Source: an uncultured Saprospiraceae bacterium (GTDB lineage Bacteria > Bacteroidota > Bacteroidia > Chitinophagales > Saprospiraceae). From it: a stretch of DNA of 28,755 nucleotides. Below the pieces are notes generated by a model that was not told the DNA's origin, searched no databases, and was given only the letters and a program-made list of their open reading frames with translations. The stretch lies in assembly GCA_964439115.1 (NCBI GenBank), contig CAYTNI010000001.1:1-28755 (forward strand). Direction: 5' to 3'. Position 1 is the stretch's first letter; each line of letters starts with the position of its first letter. This document shows positions 4,001 to 24,934 of the stretch, piece after piece. A program made the translations under genes and the position numbers.

Positions 4001-4045
4001 AGGCTGGCGGAGCTCAACGGATAAGGAGATGAACCCGGCGAAATG

Positions 4046-5902: not shown

Positions 5903-5912
5903 CAATAAGCCG

Positions 5913-5920
5913 CAAAGTTA
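5913..5920 (-). promoter_or_regulatory. -7 promoter element (TAACTTTG) for the cyclase gene
   Basis: The plus strand reads CAAAGTTA. It lies in the short gap between the yciO-like stop and the cyclase start. Confidence 0.6.
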
Positions 5921-5951
5921 ATGCCGTGCGGCGGGTTTCAGCGCGTGGAGT

Positions 5952-6566
5952 TCAGAAAATCAATTCCCCGGCACCTTGACGGATGATTTCCGGTTCCGGC
6001 CCCGTACAATCCACCAAGGTGGAGGGAATGATTCCCCCAGGGCCGCCATCAATCACCATGTCAACCAGTTTATGAAACTCCTCTTCCAGTAAATCCGGAT
6101 CAGTGTAATATTCCAGGATATCGTCTTCTGTCTTCAGTGAAGTCGTAAGTATAGGTCGGCCCAGCTCTTCAAGCAAGGCCATAATGATGGGATTATCGGG
6201 AATGCGTATTCCAATCGTTTTTTTTCGGTTCACAAAGATCTTTGGGGTTTTATGCCCGGTAGGAAGCACAAAGGTAAATGGCCCGGGAAGATTGCGACGA
6301 AGGATTTTAAATATCGGTGTATCAATTTGGGCGGCATACTCTGCCACCTGACTGATATCCTTGCACATCATGGTCAGCATTGCCTTGCCGGGATCGAGCT
6401 TTCTCAGACGGCAAACACGCTCCACGGCTTCCTTAGACATAATATCACAGCCTATGGCATATACGGTATCCGTAGGATAGATAATCACACCGTCCGCTTT
6501 CAGAATACTCACCACCTGAGTAATCTTGCGTGAATCTGGATTTTGGGTATTTATGGTAAGTAACAT
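5952..6566 (-). CDS. Sua5/YciO/YrdC family protein (L-threonylcarbamoyladenylate synthase-like, YciO-type)
   Basis: YPTDTVYAIGC, LPGPFTF, TIGIRIP, RPILTTS, DGG and STLVD motifs are present. It lacks the KxR and SxN motifs of canonical TsaC. Confidence 0.85.
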   Translation of the reverse strand: MLLTINTQNPDSRKITQVVSILKADGVIIYPTDTVYAIGCDIMSKEAVERVCRLRKLDPGKAMLTMMCKDISQVAEYAAQIDTPIFKILRRNLPGPFTFVLPTGHKTPKIFVNRKKTIGIRIPDNPIIMALLEELGRPILTTSLKTEDDILEYYTDPDLLEEEFHKLVDMVIDGGPGGIIPSTLVDCTGPEPEIIRQGAGELIF

Positions 6567-7638: not shown

Positions 7639-8262
7639 TCAGGCCATCAACAACGCTTCTATATGTTCGAAAAACATCCCTACATGGCGGGCATCCATCA
7701 GGGCGTGATGCGCGTGAACGGAAATTGGGATGGTGAACTGCCCGTTTTGTTCCAACATTTTTCCAAAGGTAACTTTCGGGATAGAATCCCCGATAGAAAA
7801 TCTTCTTGCATGGGATAATCCGGAGAAATGAATCCAGGGAATAGAAGAAAAATGGATGACGTCGAGCCTGTGGTCACCCAGCTCCAGTCCGCTACTTGCC
7901 TGCACCCTGGCCATTTCCTTTTTTGCATGCGTTTCAAACTCCGCGAAGTTCGGATAATACTCCATGTAAGAGAAGCCGAAAGTGCCATCCGGACGGCCGA
8001 TGGTTGGTGAAACATGAATTTTATCAAATACGGCTACGGCGTCCTCTTCTATACGGTATCGGAACGCTTCCTCTGCATTGACGGCTACAAGGGTTTTGTG
8101 TAAATAGGATAAGAAAAAGGAATGACCTTCTTTTTTTGACCGCTCATAGGCCTTGGTGCACGGAAGCTGGGTACAGATGCCAAAGAAAGGCTCTTCAAAA
8201 TCTTTGAAGAACTGAAAATGCGCCTTTCTGGGCCAGGATGCTATATCTAACCATGTTTTCAT
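7639..8262 (-). CDS. CatA-like O-acetyltransferase (chloramphenicol acetyltransferase family)
   Basis: W.RKAHF.FF N-terminus, SSIPWIHFS, IPKVTFGK and HHALMDARH (compare canonical HHAVCDGFH); 207 aa. Confidence 0.85.
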   Translation of the reverse strand: MKTWLDIASWPRKAHFQFFKDFEEPFFGICTQLPCTKAYERSKKEGHSFFLSYLHKTLVAVNAEEAFRYRIEEDAVAVFDKIHVSPTIGRPDGTFGFSYMEYYPNFAEFETHAKKEMARVQASSGLELGDHRLDVIHFSSIPWIHFSGLSHARRFSIGDSIPKVTFGKMLEQNGQFTIPISVHAHHALMDARHVGMFFEHIEALLMA

Positions 8263-8979: not shown

Positions 8980-10821
8980 TCAACGATTAAAACGATAGAC
9001 GACGCGCTCCGTCCACACACTTGCACCAACCCGAATACGCAAAAATGCCATTCCCTGTGCGGGAAGGTGTGCAGGAATATGCAGCGGAACATCATGTCGT
9101 CCTGAATCCAGATTCGCCTGACGGCTCCAGATTTGCCGGCCAAGCGGATCCAGTAAATCGAAACGAACATTTTGGCGACTTGCGAGATCAAGTTGTACGG
9201 TAAAATCACCCTCGTTGGGATTTGGGAAAATCAAAGGCCGCGGGGCATCTTCGACATCCGGCTCCTGTGTACTGACCGGAATACACTGATAAGTGGCCAC
9301 CCATCCGGGAGCGGTTACCCCGGCATCTGATTTGAAGCGAAAGGTGAGTGTTGGCCCGGTGGATTCGATGGTTCCCGGAAAATTATCCCCTGTGTATGCG
9401 CCAATCAATGGTGCAGATACAGAAGACCCATTGTAAATCCAGAGGGTATCAAAGCCGTTTTCAAGCTGGAAAGTGAAAAAAGTCAGTATGATGCGAGCAG
9501 CTCCCTGGGGAGCAATGGTATAAGTATATTGTTCGTTGTTGTAGTAATTTCCACCAGGGCCGCCGCCGTCAAACAGGGTATCTGCACAAACCTGGCTGGC
9601 GCAGTCAGTGAAATTCCGGCGCAGCAAATCCCACAGTTCCGAATAGCCGGCATCGTATCCGAGTGCCCAAATGCCAATTCCGGCCAGTCCGCGTCGCATG
9701 GCAAACTGGTATCTTCTTTCCAGCGTGTGTTCGGAATTAATGAAGCACTGCCGCCAGAGGTTTCCGGAAGGATACACAAAATAATTGGAAGCACTCTGAT
9801 AGTGATAATTACGGTTGTTATAGGTCGTACTGTTATCGCGCACTGCTTTGTAGGTGCGAGAAGAGTGAAAGTTTCCGGTGGTGCCTGAGGGTGCCTGACC
9901 GCTGGAGGTTTCCCATTCGCGGCCATAATAGGGCAATCCGAGCAGCAATTTTTGGGAGGGCACCCCTACATTTTGATAAAATGTGACAGACCGTGAGTGG
10001 TTGTAATTGTAACTTGCGGTAAAGCTATACAAGGGATCCGTAGGCCCGGCCTGGGTACTTCCACTCCAATAATAGTCGTAGCCCATAATGATGAATAAAT
10101 CCACATGAGGGCCCATGGCCGATACATTGAACACGTTACTCCAATCTACTGCAGGAAGCGCCATGGACAGTTCAGCCCCCGGAATAGCTGTTTTTAGCTG
10201 TGTGCTAAGGTCAATGATAAAAGCAGTAAGATTACCGCTTTGTGTGGCTGGCACAGCTTCGAAGTCAATATTTACGCCATGGGCGCCGCGTTGTTGGACA
10301 AGATTAATCAGGTTGGTGATGAGCGTCTGACGAGCATTGGCATTACCAAAAAAAGTGGCGTGGTTGCTGAACAGGGTCACACAGAGGTGTACCCTTACTC
10401 CATTGGCAAGCGCCTGGGTCACCACAGGCGCGGTAGCCCAGTTGTAGGTATTATTGGCATTGCCGGTATTGGGGTTCACCTCGTAGGCGAAGTAGGAAAG
10501 ATCGCTGAGCAGGCTCCAGTCATATTGGGTTTCCAACCCATTACTCCAATAGGGATGCCATCCGAAGACGCGTTTTTGAAGTTCGCAATTTTCATCGTTT
10601 TTAATAGGGGCCGGCAATCTGAGCGAGGCATTCCAGTTCTGCCAATCTTCAGCACTCCATCCGATAGACTGATAGTGTCTCCATTCCGCCTGGTGGGTGG
10701 ATTCATGTTGGGCGAAGAGCAGGGAGTTGCATGCAAAGTGTAGCATAGCGACCCCGATAACGAGGTACTTCAGGCATTTCCTCTGAATGCTGCTAACCAC
10801 ATGGAACGACTTAATATTCAT
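8980..10821 (-). CDS. T9SS-secreted glycoside hydrolase family 18 protein with CUB domain and type A C-terminal sorting domain
   Basis: Signal peptide ending LFA-Q. GH18 motifs VFGWHPYW, HGVNIDFE, IMGYDYY, LLGLPYYG and GIGIWALGYD. CUB domain: NYYNN...TIAP...LTF..FQLENGFDTLWIYNG...F.SD..V...GW.A.Y. The CTD reads IFPNP...DLLDPLGR. Confidence 0.85.
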   Translation of the reverse strand: MNIKSFHVVSSIQRKCLKYLVIGVAMLHFACNSLLFAQHESTHQAEWRHYQSIGWSAEDWQNWNASLRLPAPIKNDENCELQKRVFGWHPYWSNGLETQYDWSLLSDLSYFAYEVNPNTGNANNTYNWATAPVVTQALANGVRVHLCVTLFSNHATFFGNANARQTLITNLINLVQQRGAHGVNIDFEAVPATQSGNLTAFIIDLSTQLKTAIPGAELSMALPAVDWSNVFNVSAMGPHVDLFIIMGYDYYWSGSTQAGPTDPLYSFTASYNYNHSRSVTFYQNVGVPSQKLLLGLPYYGREWETSSGQAPSGTTGNFHSSRTYKAVRDNSTTYNNRNYHYQSASNYFVYPSGNLWRQCFINSEHTLERRYQFAMRRGLAGIGIWALGYDAGYSELWDLLRRNFTDCASQVCADTLFDGGGPGGNYYNNEQYTYTIAPQGAARIILTFFTFQLENGFDTLWIYNGSSVSAPLIGAYTGDNFPGTIESTGPTLTFRFKSDAGVTAPGWVATYQCIPVSTQEPDVEDAPRPLIFPNPNEGDFTVQLDLASRQNVRFDLLDPLGRQIWSRQANLDSGRHDVPLHIPAHLPAQGMAFLRIRVGASVWTERVVYRFNR

Positions 10822-10872: not shown

Positions 10873-13752
10873 TCAGTTGTTTACCACATTTCCGTCTTTA
10901 TCCAGCATGATGACATCCGCAAACCCAAGGCTTTTGAGTAGCAATGCCTGGGTAGCGGCGTCTCCCACCACGAGATAGAACATTTTCTCCGGGTCGAGAT
11001 ATTTACCGATCAGGCCTTTAGCCTGGTCGAGGGTCATGGAGAGCAACTGCTGTTCTTCCTTTTTGATAAAATCCGCCGGAAGGTCGAAGGTACTCATAGA
11101 AAGAAGGATGTTCATTTTATCCCCGAGGGTTTCAAAAGCAAGTGCATTGCTGCGCAACTGAGCCGTGCGGGTAATATCGAGGTCTTCCTGCTTGTAGTCT
11201 TCCTTATATCCGGCCAGGATTTCCCGGAAAAGTTCCACAGATTCTTTGGTTACGTTGGAACGCACGCTGGAAAATGCCGTAAAGAACCCTTGGTTGATAC
11301 GACGCGGCATAGCCGAGTTAGCCCCATAGGTATAGCCGCGTTCTTCGCGCAGACGCTGAAACAATCGGCCGGAAGTACCTGCACCGAGGCGATCATTGAT
11401 GATAGAGGCCCCGAAGAAGTCGGGATGATTACCGGCTACCAAAGGAGCACCCAGGCGGATGACAGACTGCTTAGATCCGGGAATGTCCACAAAATAAATT
11501 ACGGGTTTGTTTACAGGTTTGGCACCCTCTAAGACGGGGATAGCCACCTTTTTATCGGCCCAACCAGACTGAACACCCTTCAATGCAGCAGAAACTTGTG
11601 CAGGAGTGACAGCTCCTACCACATGGAACGCGGACACATTGGGGCTGACAAAGCGTTCGTAGTACGATTTTAAGTCTGCAATGCCTATTCGCTCCAGGCT
11701 TTCCAGGGTTCCTATAGGAGATTGGGCGAGAATATTACGCTGGCCGTACATCAGTTTGTTGAATACCGCACCTGAGATGGCATTGGGTTGGCCCGCTTGC
11801 TGCTTGATGCGGTTGAAGTTGGCCGTTTTGATGCGCTCGAACTCTTTTTCATCCCAGCGGGGCTGGAGCAGAATTTCGGTGACCAGCGCCATGACCTCAT
11901 CGAAGTTACGGGCAAGGCAGTTGCCGGAAAGACTGATAAACTCAGAGCCTGATGAGACGTTGATGGAAGCCCCAAGCTGACCGATGGCGTCCTGAAGGGC
12001 TTCGGGTGTTTTGTTTTGGGTTCCCTCCATCATCAGTTCGGCCATCAGATTGGCCACGCCGGTTTTGGCAGGGTCTTCATGCATCATCCCCCCCTTGATA
12101 CGAAGACTGAAACTGACAAGTGGCAGTTCATTATTTTCAATGCCGAATAATTTCAAGTTATTAGAGAGCGATTTAGTCCATACTTCGGGGATACGGATGA
12201 CCGGGGGAGCACCCAGTGGCGGTACTACCGTGCGGTCAATTTTAGATGGTGTGCGGGGGAATTCCGTCTCGTTTTCCTCCATAGGTGGCGCCTCTGCGCC
12301 CTGAACAATAGGTTCTTCCTCCACCTCAGCCTTTTGGGAGTTGGCCAGCGCCAGTTCAGTTTTTCCCTTAGGGACGAAGCTGGTCGCAATAAAAGGCCGG
12401 TTCCTGATGTATTTTTGATATACGCGCATCACATCCTCTTTGGTGACGGCGAGGGTTTTGGCTATATCATCCTTGAGGGCATCGGGACTGCCGGAAAATT
12501 CATTGGCGAAGGCGAGTTGGAAAGCCTTTGAAAACACGCTGGAAAGTCCATTATAGAAACTGGTTTCCAAAGAATTCTTAATGCGCTCCATATCCTTATC
12601 ATCAATGCCGGACTGTTCAAACCGGGACAGAGAGGCCATGACGCCTTCAAAGGCCTGGTCGAGATCCACGCCGGCATTCGCTCTTACCGCAATACTGAAT
12701 TCTCCGGCCACCTCCCTGGTGCGATTGAAAGCACGAGGAGAGGAGGCTACCTGCCGTGCCTCCACTAGTTCTTTGAAGAGTGGGGCCCGCTTTCCGTCAT
12801 AGAGTAATTGACCCAGATATTGAAGGGGGTAAGCGTCCGGATGACCATCCTCGACCGTAGGCCATACCAGCCTTAATTCCGGAGCTTGTGCAAAATTATC
12901 TTCATGCATCAGGCGAATTTCGGAATTGAGTACACCGGGGCGCGGCTTGAGCGAAGCGACTTCGGCCTTTGCCGGAATTTCCGAAAAATATCGGTCAATC
13001 CATTGTTTGGTTTGTGTGATATCAATATCGCCGGCGATGACGAGCGTGGCGTTATTGGGGCCATACCATTTATCGTAAAATTCCTTGACATCTTCGATGG
13101 TGGCTGCCTGGAGGTCTTCCAGACTCCCAATGACCTGCCAGTTGTAGGGATGGTCAGCGGGGTACATTGCCTTGTCTGTTACATAAGATGTATGGCCGTA
13201 AGGTACATTATCCACGCGTTGGCGTTTTTCATTCTTAACTACCTCCTTTTCGTTTTCCAAAACGGGCACCGTAACGGTGTTAATCAAAAAACCCATGCGA
13301 TCACTTTCCATCCACAGGATTTTTTCCAGCGCATCCTTTGGGAAAGTCTCGTAATACACGGTATAGTCATTGGAGGTTCCACCATTGAAATTCCCACCAA
13401 GTTCATTGATAATTTTAAAAAAATTGCCCTTTCCTACATTTTCCGAGGCCTGAAAAAGCATGTGCTCAAAAAAGTGTGCGAAGCCTGTACGGCCGGGTAC
13501 TTCACGGTTAGAACCCACGTGAAATAGGATAGACACCGCCACTACCGGGTCGGAATCATCGCGATGCAACACCACATCCATCCCATTAGGCAGGGTGTAG
13601 TGTTCGTAGGGGACTTCGAATGATGGCGATTTTTGTGAGGCAGTATCTGTGCTGCGCGCGGCAGTTGCACAGCCCGAAAGTACCCATCCCAATGTGGCCA
13701 CGAAGAGGATGGCAGTGAAAGAAAGGCGTCGGGCAAAACCTGATTTTTGCAT
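10873..13752 (-). CDS. M16 family zinc protease (insulinase/PqqL-like), predicted lipoprotein
   Basis: Inverted zinc motif HFFEH, GGNFNGGT and EKEVVKNEKRQR, then a second inactive M16 unit (GVANLMAELMMEGT) and RLREERGYTYG. The ATG at 13752 gives a signal peptide with an LSG-C lipobox. Confidence 0.9.
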   Translation of the reverse strand: MQKSGFARRLSFTAILFVATLGWVLSGCATAARSTDTASQKSPSFEVPYEHYTLPNGMDVVLHRDDSDPVVAVSILFHVGSNREVPGRTGFAHFFEHMLFQASENVGKGNFFKIINELGGNFNGGTSNDYTVYYETFPKDALEKILWMESDRMGFLINTVTVPVLENEKEVVKNEKRQRVDNVPYGHTSYVTDKAMYPADHPYNWQVIGSLEDLQAATIEDVKEFYDKWYGPNNATLVIAGDIDITQTKQWIDRYFSEIPAKAEVASLKPRPGVLNSEIRLMHEDNFAQAPELRLVWPTVEDGHPDAYPLQYLGQLLYDGKRAPLFKELVEARQVASSPRAFNRTREVAGEFSIAVRANAGVDLDQAFEGVMASLSRFEQSGIDDKDMERIKNSLETSFYNGLSSVFSKAFQLAFANEFSGSPDALKDDIAKTLAVTKEDVMRVYQKYIRNRPFIATSFVPKGKTELALANSQKAEVEEEPIVQGAEAPPMEENETEFPRTPSKIDRTVVPPLGAPPVIRIPEVWTKSLSNNLKLFGIENNELPLVSFSLRIKGGMMHEDPAKTGVANLMAELMMEGTQNKTPEALQDAIGQLGASINVSSGSEFISLSGNCLARNFDEVMALVTEILLQPRWDEKEFERIKTANFNRIKQQAGQPNAISGAVFNKLMYGQRNILAQSPIGTLESLERIGIADLKSYYERFVSPNVSAFHVVGAVTPAQVSAALKGVQSGWADKKVAIPVLEGAKPVNKPVIYFVDIPGSKQSVIRLGAPLVAGNHPDFFGASIINDRLGAGTSGRLFQRLREERGYTYGANSAMPRRINQGFFTAFSSVRSNVTKESVELFREILAGYKEDYKQEDLDITRTAQLRSNALAFETLGDKMNILLSMSTFDLPADFIKKEEQQLLSMTLDQAKGLIGKYLDPEKMFYLVVGDAATQALLLKSLGFADVIMLDKDGNVVNN

Positions 13753-13781
13753 GGCAGAAAGGATTTTTTCAAAATGAAAGA

Positions 13782-13789
13782 CAAATATA
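13782..13789 (-). promoter_or_regulatory. -7 promoter element (TATATTTG) for the M16 protease
   Basis: The plus strand reads CAAATATA, 29 nt upstream of the ATG at 13752, which supports that start over 13821. Confidence 0.55.
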
Positions 13790-13889
13790 TGCAAAACCCT
13801 TCGAACAATGCGACGATGCATCTACATCAAGTTGAGGCCCCCTTTGCCCGAAAAGAATAGAAGCATCGTTATAATATCTCTCGTTTGTA

Positions 13890-13897
13890 TAATTTTG
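13890..13897 (+). promoter_or_regulatory. -7 promoter element (TAATTTTG) for the ribF-GT2 unit
   Basis: TAATTTTGCAGC ends 7 nt before the ATG at 13905 (counting from the G of TTTG) in a divergent intergenic region. Confidence 0.65.
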
Positions 13898-13904
13898 CAG
13901 CGTC

Positions 13905-15935
13905 ATGAGAGTATTTTACGAGCTGAACGCCCTGCCGGAGTTTCGCAATGCAGTGGTAACCATAGGATCCTTTGACGGTGTACATGCCGGTCATCAGGAA
14001 ATACTGAGGCGTGTAAACCGCCTTGCACAGCAGTGCGACGGAGAAAGTATTGTTGTCACCTTTCATCCGCATCCTCGCGAAGTGATATACCCTCAGGATG
14101 ACCGCCCACTGAAGTTGCTTACCACCATCCAGGAACGAATCCAACTGTTTGAACACTACGGAGTGGACAATGTGGTAGTTGCTCCATTCACCGTGGAGTT
14201 TTCCCAGCAAAGTGCCGATGAATACATCCAAAAATTTCTCATCGGCTCCTTTCACCCGCGCTATATTGTCATAGGGTATGATCATCGCTTTGGTCTGAAC
14301 CGCTGGGGCGACATTCACTATCTGCGCGCCCATGCGGCAGCCGGTGGATTTGAAGTCCTGGAGATTGAGCCACAAACTATTGACGAACTCGCCGTTAGTT
14401 CTTCCAAAATCAGGTCAGCAGTTGAGCAAGGTAATATGCCTGCTGCCGGAAAATTATTACGACACTTTTTCCCGCTCAGCGGAGAAGTAGTACGCGGCCA
14501 GAACATTGGTATCACGCTGGGTTTTCCTACCGCCAATATTGATACCGGCGCCAAAAACAAGCTTATTCCTCCCGACGGCATCTACGCGGTTTTCGCCCAC
14601 CACCAGGGAGTGCGCTATGGAGGAATGCTCTATATCGGCACGCGACCTACACTGCCCGAATTCAACAACCGCACCATCGAAGTCCACCTTTTTGACTTCA
14701 ATCAAACCATCTACGGCCATCGCATACGGCTGGAAGTGCTGGATCGCATTCGCGACGACGCAGCCTTCCAAGGCCTTGATGATTTGCGCAGCCAACTGAG
14801 GAAAGACCAGGTTTCCGCACAGGAGGTACTCCGACGCTACGGTTGGACTGATGTGCAGGCTCGGCAACAAGCAGCCTGGCCGGAGGTCGCCATCGTCATT
14901 CTCAACTATAATGGCCGACACCACCTGGAGCATTTTCTGCCCGCAGTAAGTGCTTCTAAATATCCCAACATGCGCATCGTAGTGGCGGATAATGGATCAA
15001 CCGATGACTCCCTGGAGTTTGTCCGGCAACACTATCCTGAAATTGATTGTGTAGAAATGGGGCGTAACAGGGGCTTCGCCGAGGGTTACAACCAGGCGCT
15101 GCGAAAAGTCAATTCGCCTTATTTGGTATTATTGAATTCAGATATTGCCCCCGCCCCCGGATGGCTGCAGCCGATTATTCAACGGATGGAGAAAAACATG
15201 GGTATTGCCGTCGTTCAACCCAAAATTCTATCTTACGAAAACCGGCAGCGCTTTGAATATGCCGGTGCCTGCGGAGGATGGCTCGATGCTTTCGGGTATC
15301 CTTTCTGCCGGGGTCGGATCTTTTCGGAAACGGAAGAAGACAACGGTCAATACGATGATGCAGCCGATATTTTTTGGGCCAGCGGAGCCGCTTTCGTCAT
15401 TCGGAAAGCACTTTATGAAAAGTTTGGAGGGTTTGACGGCGATTACTTCGCCCATTCGGAGGAAATAGACCTTTGCTGGAGGCTTAAAAGGGCCGGATAC
15501 AGCATCGTTGTAGAACCGGAATCCGTAGTATATCACCTCGGCGGCGGCACCCTGGCATATAATACACCTCGAAAGACCTACCTCAATTTCCGAAATAGTT
15601 TATTTACCATCGCAAAAAATGAGCAGCTTTTTCATCTTGCCGGGCTCATTCCCCTTCGCCTTGTGTTGGATGGCCTTGCCGCCATACTCTTTTTTATCCA
15701 GGGTAAATGGAGCCATATTCTTTCCATCCTACATGCCCATTTCAGTCTTTATGCTTCCTGGATACCACTGATGCGCAAACGGAGGCAAACTGCGAACCTC
15801 ATTGAGCAGCACCGGATAAAACCGGAAGCAGACAAGGCCGGGCTGTACCCGGGAAGCATTGTCTGGCAATACTATGCCAGGAATATCCACCGCTTTCAGG
15901 ACCTCCTCAAAGTTCCGGAAAAAAAAAGCCATTAA
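13905..15935 (+). CDS. ribF: Fusion: bifunctional riboflavin kinase/FAD synthetase (aa ~1-310) + family 2 glycosyltransferase (aa ~326-676)
   Basis: RibF part: TIGSFDGVHAGH, TFHPHP, GYDHRFG, SSSKIR, GFPTAN, IGTRPT and IEVHLFDF. GT2 part: AIVILNYNG, ADNGSTD, GFAEGYN, LLNSD, WASGA, GGFD and EEIDLCWR. The frame is continuous across the junction at 14835-14880. Confidence 0.9.
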   Translation: MRVFYELNALPEFRNAVVTIGSFDGVHAGHQEILRRVNRLAQQCDGESIVVTFHPHPREVIYPQDDRPLKLLTTIQERIQLFEHYGVDNVVVAPFTVEFSQQSADEYIQKFLIGSFHPRYIVIGYDHRFGLNRWGDIHYLRAHAAAGGFEVLEIEPQTIDELAVSSSKIRSAVEQGNMPAAGKLLRHFFPLSGEVVRGQNIGITLGFPTANIDTGAKNKLIPPDGIYAVFAHHQGVRYGGMLYIGTRPTLPEFNNRTIEVHLFDFNQTIYGHRIRLEVLDRIRDDAAFQGLDDLRSQLRKDQVSAQEVLRRYGWTDVQARQQAAWPEVAIVILNYNGRHHLEHFLPAVSASKYPNMRIVVADNGSTDDSLEFVRQHYPEIDCVEMGRNRGFAEGYNQALRKVNSPYLVLLNSDIAPAPGWLQPIIQRMEKNMGIAVVQPKILSYENRQRFEYAGACGGWLDAFGYPFCRGRIFSETEEDNGQYDDAADIFWASGAAFVIRKALYEKFGGFDGDYFAHSEEIDLCWRLKRAGYSIVVEPESVVYHLGGGTLAYNTPRKTYLNFRNSLFTIAKNEQLFHLAGLIPLRLVLDGLAAILFFIQGKWSHILSILHAHFSLYASWIPLMRKRRQTANLIEQHRIKPEADKAGLYPGSIVWQYYARNIHRFQDLLKVPEKKSH

Positions 15936-15938
15936 GCC

Positions 15939-16667
15939 ATGCAACAACAACCCGAAATATTATTTCACGATGATGACGTAGTAGTAATGGCCAAACCTCC
16001 GGGGCTCCTCACTATTCCCGATCGCTTCGACACCGATAAGCCCAGTCTCCACGATGCCCTCAAGGCCGTATTTCCCAGAATTTGGACGGTACACCGATTA
16101 GACCGGGAAACCAGCGGCGTCATCGTTTTCGCCTTGAATGAAGTGGCTCATCGCGCCCTGTCTATACAATTCGAGCGCCGCACGGTAGAAAAGACGTACC
16201 TCGCCATAGTAGAAGGCGTCCCAATTCCTGAAGAAGGCACCATCGAAAAATATATAGGCCCGCATCCAGGTAAGCCAGGGCACATGACGATTATCCGCCG
16301 CGGTGGGAAATATGCACTCACCACCTACAAAGTGCAGGAAGCCTTTAGGGGATTTGCACTTGTCGAAGCAAAAATACACACCGGCAGAACCCATCAGGTT
16401 CGCGTACATCTCGCCTCCATCGGTCACCCTCTTGTTGCTGACCCGCTCTACGGGCGGAGTGATGCCCTTTTTCTCTCACAAATAAAATCCAGAGGGTTTC
16501 ATCTCGGAAAGTTTCAGGAAGAAACACCCCTGCTGCATCGCACAGCCCTTCATGCCTGGCAACTGAGTTTTGACCATCCGACCACCGGAGAAAGATTCAC
16601 TGCCGAAGCCCCCCTTCCCAAAGACCTCAGAGCCGTAGTTAACCAGCTTAGAAAATGGAAAAAGTAG
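15939..16667 (+). CDS. RluA-family pseudouridine synthase
   Basis: AKPPG, catalytic VHRLDRETSG, KTYLAIV and HTGRTHQVRVHL, DPLY, LHAWQL. No S4 domain. Confidence 0.9.
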   Translation: MQQQPEILFHDDDVVVMAKPPGLLTIPDRFDTDKPSLHDALKAVFPRIWTVHRLDRETSGVIVFALNEVAHRALSIQFERRTVEKTYLAIVEGVPIPEEGTIEKYIGPHPGKPGHMTIIRRGGKYALTTYKVQEAFRGFALVEAKIHTGRTHQVRVHLASIGHPLVADPLYGRSDALFLSQIKSRGFHLGKFQEETPLLHRTALHAWQLSFDHPTTGERFTAEAPLPKDLRAVVNQLRKWKK

Positions 16668-18951: not shown

Positions 18952-20559
18952 ATGAAGAACCCTACTGACGTCCTCATTATTGGCTCTGGTATCGGCGGAC
19001 TGAGCACAGCCATCCAAATTGCCACCAAACGCCCTGACCTGCAAATTACGGTGCTGACTAAAACTGTCGAACATGAAAGCAACACCCGCTATGCGCAAGG
19101 AGGGGTGGCCGCAGTATGGAACGAAGGGATTGATTCTTTTGAAAAACACATAGAAGATACATTGGATGCCGGAGATGGCCTATGCGACCTGGACACCGTC
19201 CGTATCGTCGTAACCGAAGGGCCCCAGCGCGTCCGCGAAATCATTGAATGGGGGACGCGTTTTGATAAAACATCCAGCAATACAGACTACGACCTTGGTC
19301 GGGAAGGCGGACACTCTGAAAACCGAATTTTACACTACAAAGACCTCACCGGCTGGGAAATTCAGCGTGCCCTCATCGCCAAAGCCGATGAATTTGCCAA
19401 TATTTCTGTATTGGAACATTACTTCGCCATTGACATCATTACGCAGCACCATCTAGGTCATATCATTACGCGACTGACGCCCGGTATTGCCTGTTTCGGC
19501 GCTTATGCGCTCAATAAACACACCGGAGAAATCGAAACCTTCCTCGCCAGAATGACGGTGGTGAGCACGGGCGGCGCCGGTCAGGTGTACCGCAACACCA
19601 CCAACCCCGTCATTGCCAGTGGAGATGGTATTGCCATGGTATATCGCGCTAAGGGATGGGTGGAAAATATGGAATTTGTTCAGTTTCACCCCACCGCCTT
19701 GTATAATCCTGCCGGAGAAAATCCGGTCTTCCTGGTATCAGAGGCTGTGCGCGGCTTTGGAGGTATCCTGAAAAACCGCCATGGGGAAGAATTTATGCAC
19801 AAATACGACCCCCGCAAGTCCCTGGCGCCACGAGACATTGTAGCACGCGCCATTGACAACGAAATGAAGCTGCACGGCGAGGAATGCATGTTTCTCGATT
19901 GCCGGCACCTGGAAAGCGCCGCATTTATCGCCCATTTTCCGACCATTTACGACAAGTGCATGAGCATTGGTATCGACCCCATGAAAGATATGATTCCGGT
20001 GGTTCCCGCTTGCCACTATATGTGCGGAGGGATTCAAACCGATGAGCTGGGTAGAACCAATATTTCGCATCTTTATGCTGTGGGAGAATGTACCAGCACG
20101 GGACTACATGGTGCTAACCGACTGGCCTCTAATTCTTTGCTGGAAGCCTTGGTGTTTGGATACCGCGCCGGCACGGATATCCTCCGCCATATTGACACCG
20201 TGGCGCTACAACAGGAAATTCCGAACTGGAATGCCAGCGGTACGACTGACCCGCCTGAAATGGTGCTCATTACCCAAAGCACCAAAGAGCTGAAAGAAAT
20301 CATGAGCAGTTATGTAGGCATTGTACGTACAAACGTTCGTTTGAAACGAGCTATGGATCGCCTGGAATTGCTATACCGGGAAACGGAAGATTTGTACCAC
20401 TCGACGACCATTTCACCACAACTCTGTGAGTTGCGCAATCTGATAACCATTGCCTACCTGATTACCCGTTCGGCTTCCATGAGACGGGAGAGCCGAGGGT
20501 TGCATTTCAATACTGATTTTCCGGAAAAACAGTCCTTTATACAAACCTCGCTGCTTTAA
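18952..20559 (+). CDS. nadB: L-aspartate oxidase
   Basis: FAD motif IIGSGIGGL, NTRYAQGG, REGGHS..RI.H, MEFVQFHPT, SEAVRG, LAPRDIV, HYMCGG, TGLHGANRLASNSL and ESRGLH. Confidence 0.95.
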   Translation: MKNPTDVLIIGSGIGGLSTAIQIATKRPDLQITVLTKTVEHESNTRYAQGGVAAVWNEGIDSFEKHIEDTLDAGDGLCDLDTVRIVVTEGPQRVREIIEWGTRFDKTSSNTDYDLGREGGHSENRILHYKDLTGWEIQRALIAKADEFANISVLEHYFAIDIITQHHLGHIITRLTPGIACFGAYALNKHTGEIETFLARMTVVSTGGAGQVYRNTTNPVIASGDGIAMVYRAKGWVENMEFVQFHPTALYNPAGENPVFLVSEAVRGFGGILKNRHGEEFMHKYDPRKSLAPRDIVARAIDNEMKLHGEECMFLDCRHLESAAFIAHFPTIYDKCMSIGIDPMKDMIPVVPACHYMCGGIQTDELGRTNISHLYAVGECTSTGLHGANRLASNSLLEALVFGYRAGTDILRHIDTVALQQEIPNWNASGTTDPPEMVLITQSTKELKEIMSSYVGIVRTNVRLKRAMDRLELLYRETEDLYHSTTISPQLCELRNLITIAYLITRSASMRRESRGLHFNTDFPEKQSFIQTSLL

Positions 20560-20621: not shown

Positions 20622-23600
20622 TTAGTTGGAAAGCACAAACTCCTTTTCAGGCTTGGGCTCCCCGTGCCCGTGGTGGTCACTGCCGAAGTCGCTCAAGGGG
20701 CGCGTACCGGTCTTCTTTTGCCGGCGAATATCTCCTTTTATCATATCCATCACGTAATACACCACCGGCACTACCACCAGCGTGAGCAACATGGAACTGG
20801 TGAGACCGCCAATCAAGGCCCATGCAAGACCATTCTTCCATTCGGCACCGGCACCTTTGGCCAATGCAATGGGCAGCATACCGAATACCATGGCAATTGT
20901 GGTCATCAGGATGGGGCGCAAACGAATACGACCGGCAAGAAGGAGCGAGTCAAAAGTACCGAAGCCCTCCGATTTCATCTGATTGGCGAAATCCACCAAA
21001 AGGATGGCATTTTTACCGACGAGACCCACGAGCATGATGATTCCGACAATGGAAAAAATATCGAGCGTTTGCATAGTGAGTGCCATGGCCAATAAAGCTC
21101 CTACGATGGCCACCGGAATGGAGAATAACACCACGAAAGGATATACCCAGTTGTCATACAAGGCGACCATGATAAAATATACAAAAAGAATGGCGGCCAA
21201 AAAAGCGATACCCAGGCTGCCAAAACCCTCTGACTGCGCTTTCAAATCACCATCATAAGCAATGAAGATGCCCGGAGGGGGTGGATTTTGGGCAATAATC
21301 TCCTTGATTTCATTACCTACGGTACCTGATGGACGGCCAAGCACTTTAGATTGAAGGGTAACTGCTGCCGTTCGATCTTTGCGCTCCAACCTGGAAGGGC
21401 CGGTAGTCTGAGTAACCGCGGCGAATTGGTTGAGGCGAATCATTTCCCCACTGCTGTTGACAAAGCTCAGTGCACTGATATCGCTGAGGCTCTTGCGGTC
21501 AAAAGCATCCAGCTTGATATTGATATCGTACTCATTATTGCCGTCGCGATACTTGGCATTGGTATTGCCGGAGAAGGCAGTTTGCATCGTAGCACCTACG
21601 GTTTGCATGTCGAGGCCTAGTTCGGCCATTCGTTCGCGATTGACCTGTACATTGATTTCGGGGTTTCCCTCTTCCACGGTAAGCTCAGCCTCCAGGGTGC
21701 CGGGCACTTTTTTAGCCTCTACTAAGAGAAAACGGGCATATTCCATGGCTTCCTCCAAGCGCGCGGAGCTTACAATAACCTGAATAGGCGCCTGGTCAGC
21801 GCCGCCGAAGAAGCTCACTAAATTAGTGGTGACCTCAACCCCCGGGAGTTGCCTTTCGATTTCATTGCGAACTCGGCTGCCATACACATCAGAGCGCACG
21901 CCACCGCGCTCTTCAAGGCCAACCATTTTCACCTGGATTTCAGCGAGGTAAGGCGTGCTTTGTCCGCCAAGAAGCCCGGTGGTTCTACCAACAGTGGTAA
22001 AAAGGTTAGTTACTTCCGGTTTTGAGGAAAGAATGCGCTCGGCTTTTTGCACAGCAAGGTTGGTTTCCTTCAAGGTTGCATCTTTGGGCAATTCCAGTTG
22101 AATAATAAACTCCCCGCGATCGCTGTTGCCAAAGAAGGCCGTACCGATAAAACCACCGCCTACGAGCGCGAACGAACTGAAAAAGAGAACAGAGGTAAGT
22201 ATTAAAACCAAAGCTTTATGGCGCAGTGACCAGTTTAAAAGGCGGTTGTAGGCCTCTGCAAGATGGTGCAGTATGCGTTCAAAGCCTATGAAAAATGCGC
22301 CAAAGATATTTTTATTGCTCAAATTCTCAATTTTGGAAAATCGGGAAGCCAACATGGGGGTAACGGTAAAGGAAACCACCAAGCTCATAAGGGTTGAAAA
22401 CACAACCACCCAGGCAAACTGCGACATGATGCTACCCACAATTCCACCGGAAAGAGCCAGGGGCACAAATACCACTACGTCCACAAGGGTAATGGAAAGG
22501 GCTGTGAAGCCAATTTCATTACGGCCATCGAGGGCTGCCACCCGGCGGTGTTTGCCCATTTCCATGTGTCGGTAAATATTTTCGAGTACCACGATGCTAT
22601 CATCCACCAGGATACCAATCACCAGCGACATGGCGAGGAGGGTCATCAGGTTGAGGGTAAAATCAAAGAGGTACATGCCGATGAACGTAGAAATTAAGGA
22701 TGCCGGAATCGCCACCATGATGATGAGCGAGTTGCGGAGGCTGTGCAGAAATACCAGCATGACTAAGGCTACAAGCACGATGGCGAGGCTAAGGTCAAAT
22801 ACTACCGCATCAACGGCCTCATTGGTAAAATCTGTAGAGTCATTGCCGATTTTGAAGGCTAAATTCTCCTCTTTGTAAATATCTTCAAGGCGTTTCATCG
22901 CTGTTTTTACCCCGGCAGAGACGGCTACAGCATTGGCGTCATTTTGCTTTTGAATAAGGATACCGATAGCACTTCGGCCATTGAGTCGGTTGATGTCATC
23001 GGCATCTTTCTGGATATCTTGTACTTCGGCCACATCAGATAGTTTGATGGAGCCGCCATTGGGAAGGTTGCGCAGCGGAAGATTGCGCAAATCGTCGAGG
23101 GTTTGGAATTTCCCGGCAAGACGAACGAGAATCTGTTCCTGTTCGCTCTTTATTTTTCCTGTCGGAAAGTCGAGATTTGCAGCCTGGATGGCCTGTCCGA
23201 TTTGAAGCAGCGATAGGTTGTTTTGTTCGAGCTTGGCTCTATTGACCTGCACCTGAATTTCTCGTTCCTGCCCCCCGACGAGCGTGACTTGCCCCACGCC
23301 TTCAACGCGGGAGAGCGCAGGTTTGATGCGATTTTTCATCAGGTCGTAGAGGTCCGCAGGAGCGAGTTCGGCATTGCCGGCAATACTCATGATTGGAAAC
23401 TCATCAGAAGCAAATTTAGACACCACGGGAGCCTTGGCATCGGCGGGCAGCGTAGATTCTGCCGCGTTCACCTTGCGCTGAACTTCCTGGAGGAGGAGAT
23501 CCACTTCTGCATCCTGTTTGAATTCGATAGTGACTGCGGAGAGTCCTTCAAGGGAGGAGGAGCGAATTCCTTCAATCCCTTCTACACCGGAGACGGCATC

Positions 23601-23804
23601 CTCTATGGGCTTGGTCAGGTTATTTTCCACTTCGGAGGGGGAGGCTCCTGGATAAACTGTGGACACAAAAATGATGGGCGCCGAGAATTTGGGAATCAGC
23701 TCGTAACTGAGCCTGGAATAGGAGAGCAAACCCAGGATGGTGAGCACCAAAAACGACACAATAATGAGAGATGGGCGTTTTATGGCTATTTCGGTAATGG
23801 ACAT
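20622..23804 (-). CDS. RND efflux permease (AcrB/AcrD/AcrF, HAE1 family)
   Basis: 1060 aa with two large periplasmic loops. Proton-relay motifs LVDDSIVVLEN, GKNAILLVD and RLRPILMTT are intact. Confidence 0.95.
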   Translation of the reverse strand: MSITEIAIKRPSLIIVSFLVLTILGLLSYSRLSYELIPKFSAPIIFVSTVYPGASPSEVENNLTKPIEDAVSGVEGIEGIRSSSLEGLSAVTIEFKQDAEVDLLLQEVQRKVNAAESTLPADAKAPVVSKFASDEFPIMSIAGNAELAPADLYDLMKNRIKPALSRVEGVGQVTLVGGQEREIQVQVNRAKLEQNNLSLLQIGQAIQAANLDFPTGKIKSEQEQILVRLAGKFQTLDDLRNLPLRNLPNGGSIKLSDVAEVQDIQKDADDINRLNGRSAIGILIQKQNDANAVAVSAGVKTAMKRLEDIYKEENLAFKIGNDSTDFTNEAVDAVVFDLSLAIVLVALVMLVFLHSLRNSLIIMVAIPASLISTFIGMYLFDFTLNLMTLLAMSLVIGILVDDSIVVLENIYRHMEMGKHRRVAALDGRNEIGFTALSITLVDVVVFVPLALSGGIVGSIMSQFAWVVVFSTLMSLVVSFTVTPMLASRFSKIENLSNKNIFGAFFIGFERILHHLAEAYNRLLNWSLRHKALVLILTSVLFFSSFALVGGGFIGTAFFGNSDRGEFIIQLELPKDATLKETNLAVQKAERILSSKPEVTNLFTTVGRTTGLLGGQSTPYLAEIQVKMVGLEERGGVRSDVYGSRVRNEIERQLPGVEVTTNLVSFFGGADQAPIQVIVSSARLEEAMEYARFLLVEAKKVPGTLEAELTVEEGNPEINVQVNRERMAELGLDMQTVGATMQTAFSGNTNAKYRDGNNEYDINIKLDAFDRKSLSDISALSFVNSSGEMIRLNQFAAVTQTTGPSRLERKDRTAAVTLQSKVLGRPSGTVGNEIKEIIAQNPPPPGIFIAYDGDLKAQSEGFGSLGIAFLAAILFVYFIMVALYDNWVYPFVVLFSIPVAIVGALLAMALTMQTLDIFSIVGIIMLVGLVGKNAILLVDFANQMKSEGFGTFDSLLLAGRIRLRPILMTTIAMVFGMLPIALAKGAGAEWKNGLAWALIGGLTSSMLLTLVVVPVVYYVMDMIKGDIRRQKKTGTRPLSDFGSDHHGHGEPKPEKEFVLSN

Positions 23805-23843
23805 TGTCTGCTGATTTAAATGAAACGAGGGAAGGTGAGTTTG

Positions 23844-24914
23844 TTATTTCGAAGAAGTATCGACCTGGGTGCCCTCATCGAGATTGATTTGTCCGGCAAC
23901 GACTACGACATCTCCTTCTTTCAATCCGTCTTCTATTGCAACGAAATCTCCGTAAATGGCGCCAAGCCGAACGGGTTTCAGGCGAGCAATTCCATTGTCA
24001 ACGACAAAAACCCTGGCATCGCGCACACTTCCCACCACGGCTTCGCGCGGCAAGGCCAGCACTACAGCAGAGCGGCCACTGTCGAAATATGCATAGCCGT
24101 TCATACCCCCTTTAAGGGGCGTAGCAGACGGGTTATTCAGCTCGATTTCCACCATGAACCGCCGTGCATTATCTGCTTTGGCAGAGATATAGGATACGAC
24201 TCCTGAAAAGCTACCTGCAGGATATAAATCTGCTGACAGCTTTACATTTTGCCCTATCTTGACCTGGACTACTTCCTCCTCACTGAGATTGACCTGAAAT
24301 TTGAGGCGCGCCACATTAACAATATTCAGGATAGGAGCGCCGGGGCCGATAAAAGCGCCTTTTTCTACCGTCTTTCCGGAAACAATACCGGCAATGGGTG
24401 CTTTGACCACGGTGAGCGAGATTTGTTTTTCCAAGCCTCTGATCTGGGCTTTCAGGTTTTCCACGGCAATTTCGGCGTCATTCACCTGCTGTTGGGTGAC
24501 ACCACCATCGCCGACGAGGTTCTTTAGGCGAGTAAGGTCCTGTTCTGCTTTTTTCAGATTGAGCGATGTAATATCGAGTTGGTTCTTGAGCAAGTCATTA
24601 TCCACGGTGAGTATAATGGAACCTTCATTTACGGAAGAGCCATTGTTGACGTTCAGCTGGGTAATACGCCCAGACACATCTGATACCAGGGCAAGCTCCT
24701 TAAAGGGTTGAAATTGTCCGGAGGATTTAAAACTTGCACTCACGCTTTTGCGGGAAACGGAAGCCGTTTTTACCGGAATGATCTCATTGCGCTCCTGGGC
24801 GAGCTTTGCCTGTTCGTTAATGACTTTTTTGTTGTCGTTGAGTTTCCATACGACCACGCCGACAGCTGCACCGGCAACGACAAGGAAGAGGAATATGCGA
24901 ATGAACTTATTCAT
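23844..24914 (-). CDS. RND efflux periplasmic adaptor (membrane fusion protein)
   Basis: N-terminal TM anchor, lipoyl-type halves (VSGRITQLNVNNGS; VKAPIAGIV) around a coiled coil, and GLKEGDVVVVAG. Confidence 0.92.
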   Translation of the reverse strand: MNKFIRIFLFLVVAGAAVGVVVWKLNDNKKVINEQAKLAQERNEIIPVKTASVSRKSVSASFKSSGQFQPFKELALVSDVSGRITQLNVNNGSSVNEGSIILTVDNDLLKNQLDITSLNLKKAEQDLTRLKNLVGDGGVTQQQVNDAEIAVENLKAQIRGLEKQISLTVVKAPIAGIVSGKTVEKGAFIGPGAPILNIVNVARLKFQVNLSEEEVVQVKIGQNVKLSADLYPAGSFSGVVSYISAKADNARRFMVEIELNNPSATPLKGGMNGYAYFDSGRSAVVLALPREAVVGSVRDARVFVVDNGIARLKPVRLGAIYGDFVAIEDGLKEGDVVVVAGQINLDEGTQVDTSSK

Positions 24915-24934
24915 GATGATTGTTTTAAAAGAAA

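Follow-up and report, generated by a model that had tools for sequence, protein, structure and literature searches.

The ribF::GT2 gene is one uninterrupted reading frame

The window (the whole 28,755-nt stretch of DNA analysed here, from an uncultured Saprospiraceae bacterium) carries a ribF::GT2 fusion gene followed directly by a pseudouridine synthase gene (Table 1). Translation of the fusion runs from an ATG to a TAA without internal stop codons, and the product is laid out as a complete RibF, a 16-residue polar linker, a family-2 glycosyltransferase (GT2) of GT-A fold and a hydrophobic C-terminal helical tail. Pfam recognises FAD_syn (3e-47) and Flavokinase (1.4e-35) over the residues given in Table 1, and then Glycos_transf_2 at residues 330–452 (3e-22) and Glyco_tranf_2_3 at 326–550 (1e-17). 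A preliminary description, made from the sequence alone, had reported a single frame of this length holding two complete enzymes. The frame was confirmed, the completeness of both enzymes is borne out by motifs and Pfam domains, and each quoted motif was found where it had been placed: HAGH at 27–30, SSSKIR at 165–170, PTAN at 208–211 and IEVH at 258–261 in the RibF half, and DNGSTD at 362–367, LLNSD at 409–413, FEYAGACGG at 450–458, YPFCRGRIF at 465–473 and EEID at 519–522 in the GT2 half.

Table 1. Features of the ribF::GT2 locus (coordinates are those of the window)
Feature	Residues	Position	Strand	Evidence and remarks
Whole ribF::GT2 fusion ORF	676 aa	13905..15935	+	stop codon included
FMN adenylyltransferase module of RibF	1–186	13905..14462	+	Pfam FAD_syn 13–167, FADS motifs; dN/dS 0.05
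Riboflavin kinase module of RibF	187–311	14463..14837	+	Pfam Flavokinase 187–309, motifs; dN/dS 0.03
Inter-enzyme linker, polar	312–327	14838..14885	+	unconserved sequence, variable length
GT-A-fold family-2 glycosyltransferase catalytic domain	328–554	14886..15566	+	PF00535, PF13641, AF2, Foldseek; dN/dS 0.07
C-terminal helical tail of GT2	555–676	15567..15932	+	hydropathy, AF2 helices, invariant columns
RluA-family pseudouridine synthase gene		15939..16667	+	Pfam PseudoU_synth_2; starts 4 bp past the fusion stop codon
TAATTTTG, matches TAnnTTTG		13890..13897	+	8 nt upstream of the ATG; candidate -7 element, lead only

The N-terminal half is predicted to be an ordinary FAD synthetase

Judging from motifs, profile scores and structure matches, residues 1–311 are predicted to be an ordinary type-I bifunctional FAD synthetase, in which the kinase module would convert riboflavin to FMN and the adenylyltransferase module FMN to FAD. 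Motifs were scored against the FADS consensus (PMC2573891). All nucleotidyltransferase motifs (consensus GxFDGxHxGH, FxP[HQ]P, GxD[FYH]x[FY]G and SS[TS]x[IV]R) are present, with N1 reading IGSFDGVHAGH at residue 20, N2 FHPHP at 53, N4 IVIGYDHRFG at 121 and N5 VSSSKIR at 164; these four recur in 119–120 of 120 homologues. All kinase motifs (consensus G[FY]PT[ALIV]N, PxxG[VI][YF] and the catalytic Glu in [LVI]Ex[HFYN]) are likewise found, as GFPTAN at 206, PPDGIY at 222 and IEVHLFDF at 258, together with IGTRPTL. The RibF half passes the equivalog cut-offs of TIGR00083 (234.6 bits vs 184.35) and NF004162 (252.9 vs 241) and falls slightly under that of NF004160 (287.5 vs 295). It aligns end to end with the FADS enzymes of T. 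maritima (PDB 1mrz) and C. ammoniagenes (PDB 2x0k), at E ~1e-43. Unlike these enzymes, the fusion protein has a C-terminal extension of 365 residues that forms a second, unrelated enzyme. Known RibF proteins are soluble and ~290–340 aa long, and the earlier view of RibF as normally a stand-alone enzyme is supported.

The C-terminal half belongs to glycosyltransferase family 2

The second half scores 79.9 bits against PF00535 (gathering score 23.3), which places it in family GT2. Its AF2 model (pLDDT 95, pTM 0.92) matched the GT-A enzymes ppGalNAc-T2 and PcManGT in Foldseek (probability 1.00, TM 0.5–0.6); a search for a close solved structure gave none, the best matches being generic GT-A enzymes of this kind. 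The motifs ADNGSTD, LLNSD, FEYAGAxGG, YPFCRGR and EEIDLCW are kept in 112–120 of 120 homologues. Invariant acidic residues, whose roles are assigned by analogy, are D362, D367, D413 (within the NSD at 411–413) and E519/E520/D522; the DxD position thus reads NSD, a variant.

Two named groups were considered for this half. It had been likened to the WbbL-type rhamnosyltransferases, with which it has in common the GT-A fold and the broad Glyco_tranf_2_3 group; the resemblance proved generic, as TIGR01556 gave 44.1 bits against a cut-off of 200.55, and membership was rejected. The best-scoring named NCBIfam model was that of the mycofactocin glycosyltransferase MftF (TIGR03965), again of GT-A fold and the Glyco_tranf_2_3 group. 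This assignment was also rejected, with 86.7 bits against a cut-off of 280 and no mft genes in the window. Elsewhere, members of the GT2 family to which the second half belongs are fused to GT-C PMT_2 and AftD domains, to GT1, to a second GT2, to glutaminyl cyclase and to GH2, a variety of partners consistent with a fusion-prone envelope glycosyltransferase.

With its FADS consensus motifs, a TIGR00083 score above cut-off, invariant GT2 motifs and dN/dS of 0.03–0.07 across the three catalytic modules, which indicates strong purifying selection on both halves, the protein appears to be functional in both. One half might in principle be a degenerate passenger, the GT2 serving as a mere membrane anchor or RibF as a flavin-binding regulatory domain while the real enzyme is encoded elsewhere. 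The low dN/dS speaks against this, as do the catalytic motifs of both halves, kept in ~95–100% of the 120 homologues. Moreover, no stand-alone GT2 copy from a fused genome occurred among the best 80 loci, and we consider the idea hardly credible.

A hydrophobic tail and an unconstrained linker

Strong hydrophobicity is confined to one segment of the fusion, in its C-terminal tail, where the 19-residue Kyte-Doolittle mean reaches 2.07 around residues 574–607. AF2 places four long helices there (555–572, 575–598, 602–617 and 619–635); the hydrophobic one, 575–598 (nt 15627–15698), contains the invariant R585 and D589 and is preceded by an invariant LNFRN motif. A hydrophobic tail helix is conserved in 120 of 120 homologues (mean maximal hydropathy 1.76), and stand-alone orthologues have a helical tail too. 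From these features we infer that the GT2 is membrane-associated. It may act on the cytoplasmic side of the inner membrane, with a lipid-linked envelope glycan or a lipid as acceptor. A mode of action like that of polyprenyl-phosphate or lipid-linked-acceptor GT2s (GtrB/DPMS-like or WbbL/GlfT-like) is conceivable; the observations bearing on it are the hydrophobic helix with its conserved R585 and D589 and the GT-C fusions within the family, and by sequence the protein is not a direct member of these groups. Given the hydrophobic tail, RibF, and with it FAD synthesis, is probably tethered to the membrane as an incidental result of the fusion. The preliminary description had offered such tethering as one reading, and it is plausible as a physical consequence, adaptive value aside.

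The stretch quoted earlier as the linker, RRYGWTDVQARQQAAW, corresponds to residues 310–325 (nt 14832–14879). Mean column conservation was 0.24 in the linker vs 0.72–0.80 in the domains, and the spacing between the motifs that flank it ranged from 28 to 46 residues in 220 fusions, with K, E, Q, S and A abundant. Comparison of fused relatives, suggested as a check for a conserved linker, thus gave the opposite result: the sequence is not conserved, the length differs by as many as 18 residues, and the linker is evidently unconstrained in both respects. AF2 places a short helix at 316–323 within it. In the full-length model (pTM 0.69) the linker has a pLDDT of ~85, values that leave room for the two enzymes to pack in a defined way. 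A search for an internal promoter or start codon for separate expression of the GT2 yielded a single in-frame GTG (residue 317), and TAnnTTTG did not occur close to the junction.

The GT2 half is evidently orthologous to a stand-alone Bacteroidota enzyme

Among the best 80 species loci, 61, spread across Bacteroidota, carry a stand-alone GT2 of ~345 aa, of which the GT2 half is evidently an orthologue; the claim that Bacteroidota as a rule encode such a GT2 in a separate, conserved gene therefore holds. The stand-alone proteins, such as WP_090246769.1 of Lishizhenia tianjinensis, which carries no annotation beyond 'glycosyltransferase family 2 protein', are 45–54% identical over the full length, tail included (residues 6–347 of the GT2 half), and have in common with the fused form the motifs DNxSxD, NSD, FEYAGAxGG, YPFCRGR, EEIDLCWR and LNFRN. 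Between fused and stand-alone sequences, 72 sites are at least 90% conserved for the same residue, none is fixed differently, and per-site conservation is correlated (r = 0.81). The 72 common sites and the lack of differently fixed ones give no sign of a new substrate or function for the GT2. Candidate clade-specific changes that might signal a new acceptor came down to E573, where the stand-alone proteins have L, and a short tail insertion of ~6 residues near 637–642. The fusion draws attention to this phylum-wide membrane GT2 and to the question of its substrate.

While the Saprospiraceae-type GT2 is fused to RibF, the stand-alone gene is unlinked to ribF, which was absent within 4 kb at 59 of 61 loci, and its neighbours depend on the lineage. 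They vary by order (histidine kinase, GWxTD-like protein, LpxL-like acyltransferase, HsdR-N/holA/aroQ, WbqC-like protein), and no conserved operon partner that would reveal a pathway was found among its loci. At two of the 63 loci without the fusion (L055 and L073), ribF and the stand-alone GT2 lie on opposite strands, 0.6–1.5 kb apart. The absence of ribF near most stand-alone genes rules out that the fusion merged genes which are neighbours in all Bacteroidota. The proposal that the fusion is neutral and joins adjacent core genes nevertheless comes closest to the evidence; what has to be amended is the adjacency, which is specific to the clade, as the genes lie apart in other Bacteroidota.

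The existence of the fusion could itself be taken as a hint that the GT2 acts on a flavin, on a flavin-derived cofactor or in a pathway that needs FAD, with the product of RibF being channelled to it. The two loci with a nearby ribF fit such a coupling, and so does the best NCBIfam match, since MftF decorates the redox cofactor mycofactocin. However, the MftF score is so far under its cut-off that it reflects generic GT2 similarity, and no clade-specific fixed substitutions set the fused GT2 apart from ribF-unlinked orthologues of Flavobacteriales, Bacteroidales, Sphingobacteriales and Chitinophagaceae. Elsewhere the family is fused to glycan rather than flavin enzymes, the hydrophobic tail points to an acceptor bound to the membrane, and natural fissions are tolerated (see below). 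In the literature searched, we found no paper on a RibF-GT2 fusion or on flavin-glycosylating chemistry of this kind. We regard the coupling as very improbable. The narrower suggestion that the GT2 glycosylates riboflavin or FMN is disfavoured by a constraint pattern equal to that of the ribF-unlinked orthologues and by the persistence of split alleles. In a wider form, the stand-alone GT2 would be tied to flavin metabolism throughout the phylum, either glycosylating a flavin or derived cofactor or having FAD synthesis placed beside it for envelope or exported flavoproteins, and the Saprospiraceae would have made the link covalent; this is a long shot. Altogether, the evidence points to the joining of two ordinary housekeeping enzymes and not to new flavin-sugar chemistry.

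The fusion is real, old and common to Saprospiraceae-type bacteria

In public data, over 220 different full-length fusions can be found, at 41–96% identity; the set of 220 sequences used here combines the best 120 matches to the window protein with the best 120 to a divergent member, all of them full-length fusions. Every named carrier belongs to Saprospiraceae, Saprospirales, Lewinellaceae, Phaeodactylibacter or Neolewinella or is an unclassified Bacteroidota MAG, and the cultured ones include Neolewinella persica and Phaeodactylibacter xiamenensis. At the level of GTDB species loci, 17 of the best 80 are fused, all of the Saprospiraceae type. The fusion is a simple molecular marker of this lineage.

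The preliminary description had asked whether the fusion might be unique to this assembly, and it clearly is not. In some relatives, a genuine 1-nt indel in a homopolymer does set the gene apart from the fused form, and an assembly or gene-calling artefact, in which loss of a stop codon or a frameshift error would fuse separate genes, is otherwise a general possibility only. Against it stand hundreds of fused sequences obtained independently, from isolates, from contigs of 7.9 and 8.9 Mb and from many metagenomes. An independent ENA assembly (L089) carries a 96%-identical orthologue with matching architecture and neighbours, which differs at 122 nt and is collinear without gaps. We therefore discard the artefact, whose probability is next to nil. 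An identical 676-aa protein, with 0 nt differences, is also encoded on a Logan contig (L088), possibly from the window's own read set.

NCBI names the fusion proteins just "bifunctional riboflavin kinase/FAD synthetase", so hundreds of entries are predicted to be in fact trifunctional, with the GT2 half overlooked. As a consequence, Saprospiraceae seem to lack a core Bacteroidota glycosyltransferase.

Split alleles and a probable origin of the fusion

The rluA gene lies directly downstream of the fusion at 17 of 19 fused loci and also in two lineages of the clade in which ribF and GT2 are separate genes. These overlap by 19 bp in one lineage (L083/L084) and by 8 bp in the other (L085–L087), and the mrp-nifU | ribF-GT2-rluA synteny is kept. 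Both split lineages nest inside the fused clade in a numpy neighbour-joining tree, in which a single fused-plus-split clade has weak bootstrap support (79/200). In L083, a 658-aa fused ORF is regained when an A9 run is lengthened by one A. As at least two lineages carry split, overlapping genes in an unchanged operon, the covalent linkage between RibF and GT2 is apparently dispensable. The clade offers a natural experiment: with fused, frameshift-split and cleanly split overlapping genes side by side, fusion and translational coupling can be compared. The suggestion that flavin status is coupled to envelope glycan synthesis finds support as far as co-transcription and no further.

We think it probable that the gene is an old fusion of operon neighbours, near-neutral or kept for co-expression, in which each module has retained its ancestral job and RibF is tethered to the membrane incidentally. 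In a Saprospiraceae-type ancestor, the GT2 gene would have come to lie between ribF and the rluA-type pseudouridine synthase gene. Loss of the ribF stop codon would then have merged the reading frames through a short, unconstrained polar linker, giving one polypeptide of three enzyme modules, each with its ancestral role. The outcome would be 1:1 co-expression and a probable anchoring of FAD synthesis, and at least two lineages would later have reverted to two overlapping genes with the operon unchanged.

In this account the architecture, conservation, distribution, orthology and split alleles are shown, while near-neutrality, like membrane association and the class of acceptor, is inferred. 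Long maintenance weighs against neutrality: the fusion was kept clade-wide while the RibF halves diverged down to 40% identity, which could reflect selection. The GT2 could have its ancestral role and the fusion be retained because a membrane-anchored FAD synthetase is useful, for instance as a local source of FAD or FMN for membrane or exported flavoproteins; in split lineages, translational coupling and protein-protein association would preserve the benefit. The hydrophobic tail helix present in all 120 homologues agrees with this, as do the fusion or tight gene overlap held throughout the clade and the defined domain arrangement that the AF2 pTM of 0.69 allows. Yet the two genes are linked in no other Bacteroidota lineage among the species loci compared, the linker is unconserved and variable in length, split alleles persist in several samples, and no flavin-export or flavinylation gene was found in the window or at related loci. 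An adaptive role for the tethering thus seems unlikely, and the old, near-neutral or co-expression fusion is the reading we prefer.

Covalent joining of a flavin-cofactor enzyme to a second domain has counterparts. Eukaryotic FAD synthase carries a molybdopterin-binding-like domain, and plant riboflavin kinase is fused to an FMN hydrolase. PMC9678776 describes a plant FAD synthetase joined to an inactivated FAD pyrophosphatase. Those partners act on flavins or nucleotides, whereas in RibF-GT2 the partner is a glycosyltransferase without a known flavin link.

Upstream sequences

Sigma-70 and terminator scans gave nothing above chance level, and the window contained no Rfam match to a riboswitch or other RNA element. 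TAnnTTTG is the Bacteroidota-type -7 promoter element; its sole occurrence on the + strand between 13700 and 16100 is the TAATTTTG that precedes the fusion gene.

Architecture and distribution of the RibF-GT2 fusion

The ORF joining RibF to GT2 is uninterrupted from ATG to TAA, as in the preliminary description, and the motifs quoted there all lie where they were placed. Pfam assigns to the window protein FAD_syn (residues 13–167, 3e-47), Flavokinase (residues 187–309, 1e-35) and Glycos_transf_2 / Glyco_tranf_2_3 (residues 326–550), and its score with the TIGR00083 ribF equivalog, 234.6 bits, is above the cut-off of 184. The RibF half can be aligned over its entire length with the solved enzymes of T. 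maritima and C. ammoniagenes. Between the kinase and GT2 domains lies the 16-residue stretch RRYGWTDVQARQQAAW (residues 310–325, nt 14832–14879), and strong hydrophobicity is confined to one stretch in the C-terminal tail (~574–607; Kyte-Doolittle 19-residue mean 2.07).

Coordinates of the fusion, the split junctions and neighbouring features
Feature	Sequence	Position	Strand	Remarks
RibF::GT2 fusion ORF	window	13905-15935	+	676 codons, ATG start, TAA stop, uninterrupted
TAATTTTG	window	13890-13897	+	matches TAnnTTTG; 8 nt upstream of fusion ATG
Split junction	L085, L086, L087	around 6001-6008		ribF stop codon overlaps GT2 ATG by 8 bp (GATGACTAG)
Split junction	L083 (identical in L084)	5987-5995		A9 run within lysine-rich linker
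ribF near stand-alone GT2	L055, Sphingobacteriaceae MAG	5634-6542	-	
ribF near stand-alone GT2	L073, Bacteroidia MAG	3586-4470	-	
Cyclase-TPR protein	window	4046-5905	-	619 aa
CAT-family acetyltransferase	window	7639-8262	-	
GH18-CUB protein	window	8980-10821	-	613 aa
NadB-like (L-aspartate oxidase) enzyme	window	18952-20556	+	FAD-dependent; 3 kb 3' of fusion
Apparent RND efflux operon	window	20622-26948	-	TetR regulator, outer-membrane factor, membrane-fusion protein, AcrB-type pump

When 5.8 billion proteins were searched with the window protein, the best 120 matches were all full-length fusions (661–735 aa, 56–96% identity, 98–100% coverage), each with all three domain families. A second search, starting from the most divergent fused representative (P0151; GT2 half 41% identical), again returned 120 fusions among its best 120 matches. 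Pooled, these give 220 distinct fusion sequences, so the fusion is not unique to one assembly. Those with names belong to Saprospiraceae, Saprospirales, Lewinellaceae, Phaeodactylibacter and unclassified Bacteroidota MAGs; in P. xiamenensis the fusion sits on a 7.87-Mb contig. A Logan contig (L088) encodes the exact window protein with 0 nt differences and may derive from the same read set, while an independent ENA assembly (L089) holds a gap-free, 96% identical orthologue with the same neighbours. The many fused sequences across databases, together with this orthologue, rule out an assembly artefact. NCBI and JGI name the fusions only "bifunctional riboflavin kinase/FAD synthetase", and we found no published description in the literature searched. 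The fusion is an uncharacterised new architecture of two known enzyme kinds, common in databases yet unremarked; its interest is modest, and it is useful mainly for annotation, for marking the clade and as a series of natural fusions and fissions.

Identity of the GT2 half

Searched alone against 1.84 billion cluster representatives, the GT2 half matched fusions and many stand-alone proteins of ~345 aa, 45–54% identical over the full length including the tail (for example the "glycosyltransferase family 2 protein" of Lishizhenia tianjinensis). In genomes representing each GTDB species once, >600 stretches matched, and we classified the best 80 loci. Seventeen were fused, all Saprospiraceae-type and including Neolewinella persica DSM 23188, and 61 carried a stand-alone GT2 with ribF absent within 4 kb (one of them, L020, ends at a contig edge). 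Hosts of the latter were Chitinophagaceae, Sphingobacteriaceae, Flavobacteriales, Bacteroidales and Marinilabiliales, and no conserved operon partner was found for the stand-alone genes among these 80 loci. At the remaining two, L055 and L073, neither from Saprospiraceae, ribF lies 0.6–1.5 kb downstream of a stand-alone GT2 on the opposite strand; this closeness may be chance or a relic of proximity.

No curated family claims the GT2 domain, which falls below cut-off with both the MftF model (86.7 bits against 280) and the rhamnosyltransferase model. With the latter it reaches just 44.1 against 200, which speaks against the WbbL-type likeness proposed earlier. The AlphaFold model combines a confident GT-A domain with four long helices on its C-terminal side (pLDDT 95, pTM 0.92). 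Foldseek retrieved generic GT-A relatives only, namely ppGalNAc-transferases (TM ~0.6) and the membrane mannosyltransferase PcManGT, and no close sequence relative with a solved structure was found. Nine GT2 relatives (P0168, P0181, P0218, P0237, P0184, P0208, P0213, P0133 and P0145; 28–53% identical) are fused to other domains: GT-C (PMT_2, AftD), GT1, a second GT2, glutaminyl cyclase or a GH2 hydrolase. The GT-C partners may point to a pathway with lipid-linked sugars. Because the tail has a hydrophobic helix (575–598) with invariant R585 and D589, the LNFRN motif is invariant, and relatives are fused to GT-C, GT1 and second GT2 domains, we infer that the enzyme is probably active at the membrane, with a lipid-linked envelope substrate.

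Constraint on the modules and the linker

In an alignment of the window protein with 120 homologues, mean column conservation was 0.80 for FMNAT, 0.72 for the kinase, 0.77 for the GT2 core, 0.63 for the tail and 0.24 for the linker. The window protein carries every FADS motif of the consensus of Frago et al. (PMC2573891), and each is found in 95–120 of the 120 homologues. The GT2 motifs ADNGSTD, LLNSD, QPK, FEYAGAxGG, YPFCRGR, FWAxGA, EEIDLCW, HxGGGT and LNFRN occur in 112–120 of 120. Between window and L089, the dN/dS values were 0.05 (FMNAT), 0.03 (kinase) and 0.07 (GT-A domain). In the linkers of the 220 fusions K, E, Q, S and A are abundant, and the motifs on either side are 28 to 46 residues apart. 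Judged from these patterns, selection acts on both halves and not on the linker.

The preliminary description had also suggested that the GT2 acts on flavins. When 19 fused GT2 sequences were compared with 62 stand-alone ones, 72 sites had the same residue at least 90% conserved in both groups, 0 sites were fixed differently, and per-site conservation was correlated (r = 0.81). The only differences were E573 (nt 15621–15623), mostly L in stand-alone proteins, and a tail insertion of ~6 residues (637–642, nt 15813–15830). The comparison gives no sign of a new function in the fused copies and speaks against re-targeting to flavins through fusion to RibF; we regard a real functional link between GT2 and flavins as very improbable.

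Natural split alleles and origin of the fusion

Two stand-alone forms, P0123/P0271 and P0135, resemble the fused clade more closely than they do other stand-alone proteins. Their loci encode separate ribF (316–318 aa) and GT2 (345–347 aa) genes in the synteny of the Phaeodactylibacter fusion locus (ribF, GT2 and rluA, preceded by oppositely oriented mrp/ParA and nifU). The genes overlap by 19 bp in L083 and L084 and by 8 bp in L085–L087, the latter an arrangement typical of translational coupling. P0135 occurs on at least 24 contigs; three sampled copies, differing by 4–6 nt, are all split, and the L085–L087 junction is stable across them. Adding one A to the A9 run of L083 yields an uninterrupted 658-aa fusion, and a -1 slip of the ribosome there, or slippage during transcription, could still yield some fused protein.

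In a neighbour-joining tree (200 bootstraps) both split forms fall inside the fused clade. L083 joined three fused sequences in 140/200 replicates; all fused sequences grouped without the split ones in 0/200. The simplest reading is a single old fusion that was later undone at least twice. The fused-plus-split clade appears in 79/200 replicates, and this weak deep-node support leaves room for an ancestrally split L085 lineage. Under either history it is the ribF-GT2-rluA operon that is conserved as a unit, and the split alleles show the covalent link to be dispensable.

Probably the product is a trifunctional polypeptide whose parts would each retain their ancestral role. The fusion would have arisen when the stop codon between two operon neighbours was lost in an ancestor of the Saprospiraceae-type lineage; by-products would be co-expression and, probably, the tethering of RibF to the membrane. 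That tethering itself has adaptive value, as the hydrophobic tail might suggest, seems unlikely beside the split alleles. A full-length AF2 model (pLDDT 86, pTM 0.69) is compatible with a fixed RibF-GT2 interface and equally with none.

Genomic context

Upstream of the fusion lies an 83-nt intergenic region, which includes TAATTTTG, and an rluA-type gene starts 4 bp past the fusion's stop. TAATTTTG, the only TAnnTTTG match among + strand positions 13700–16100, is a lead only: as a candidate Bacteroidota -7 promoter element it would imply a very short leader. The window holds no glycan or flavin gene cluster and no Rfam element; its remaining genes are ordinary housekeeping ones (M16 peptidase, CBS-domain protein, DUF1573, aminotransferase, NadB-like oxidase, Sua5, asparaginase, RND efflux operon and others). 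The NadB-like enzyme is linked to the fusion by proximity alone. Two further proteins combine domains: one joins an N-terminal adenylate/guanylate cyclase catalytic domain to a long TPR array, the other a GH18 chitinase-like domain to a CUB domain, a type known mainly from animal extracellular proteins.
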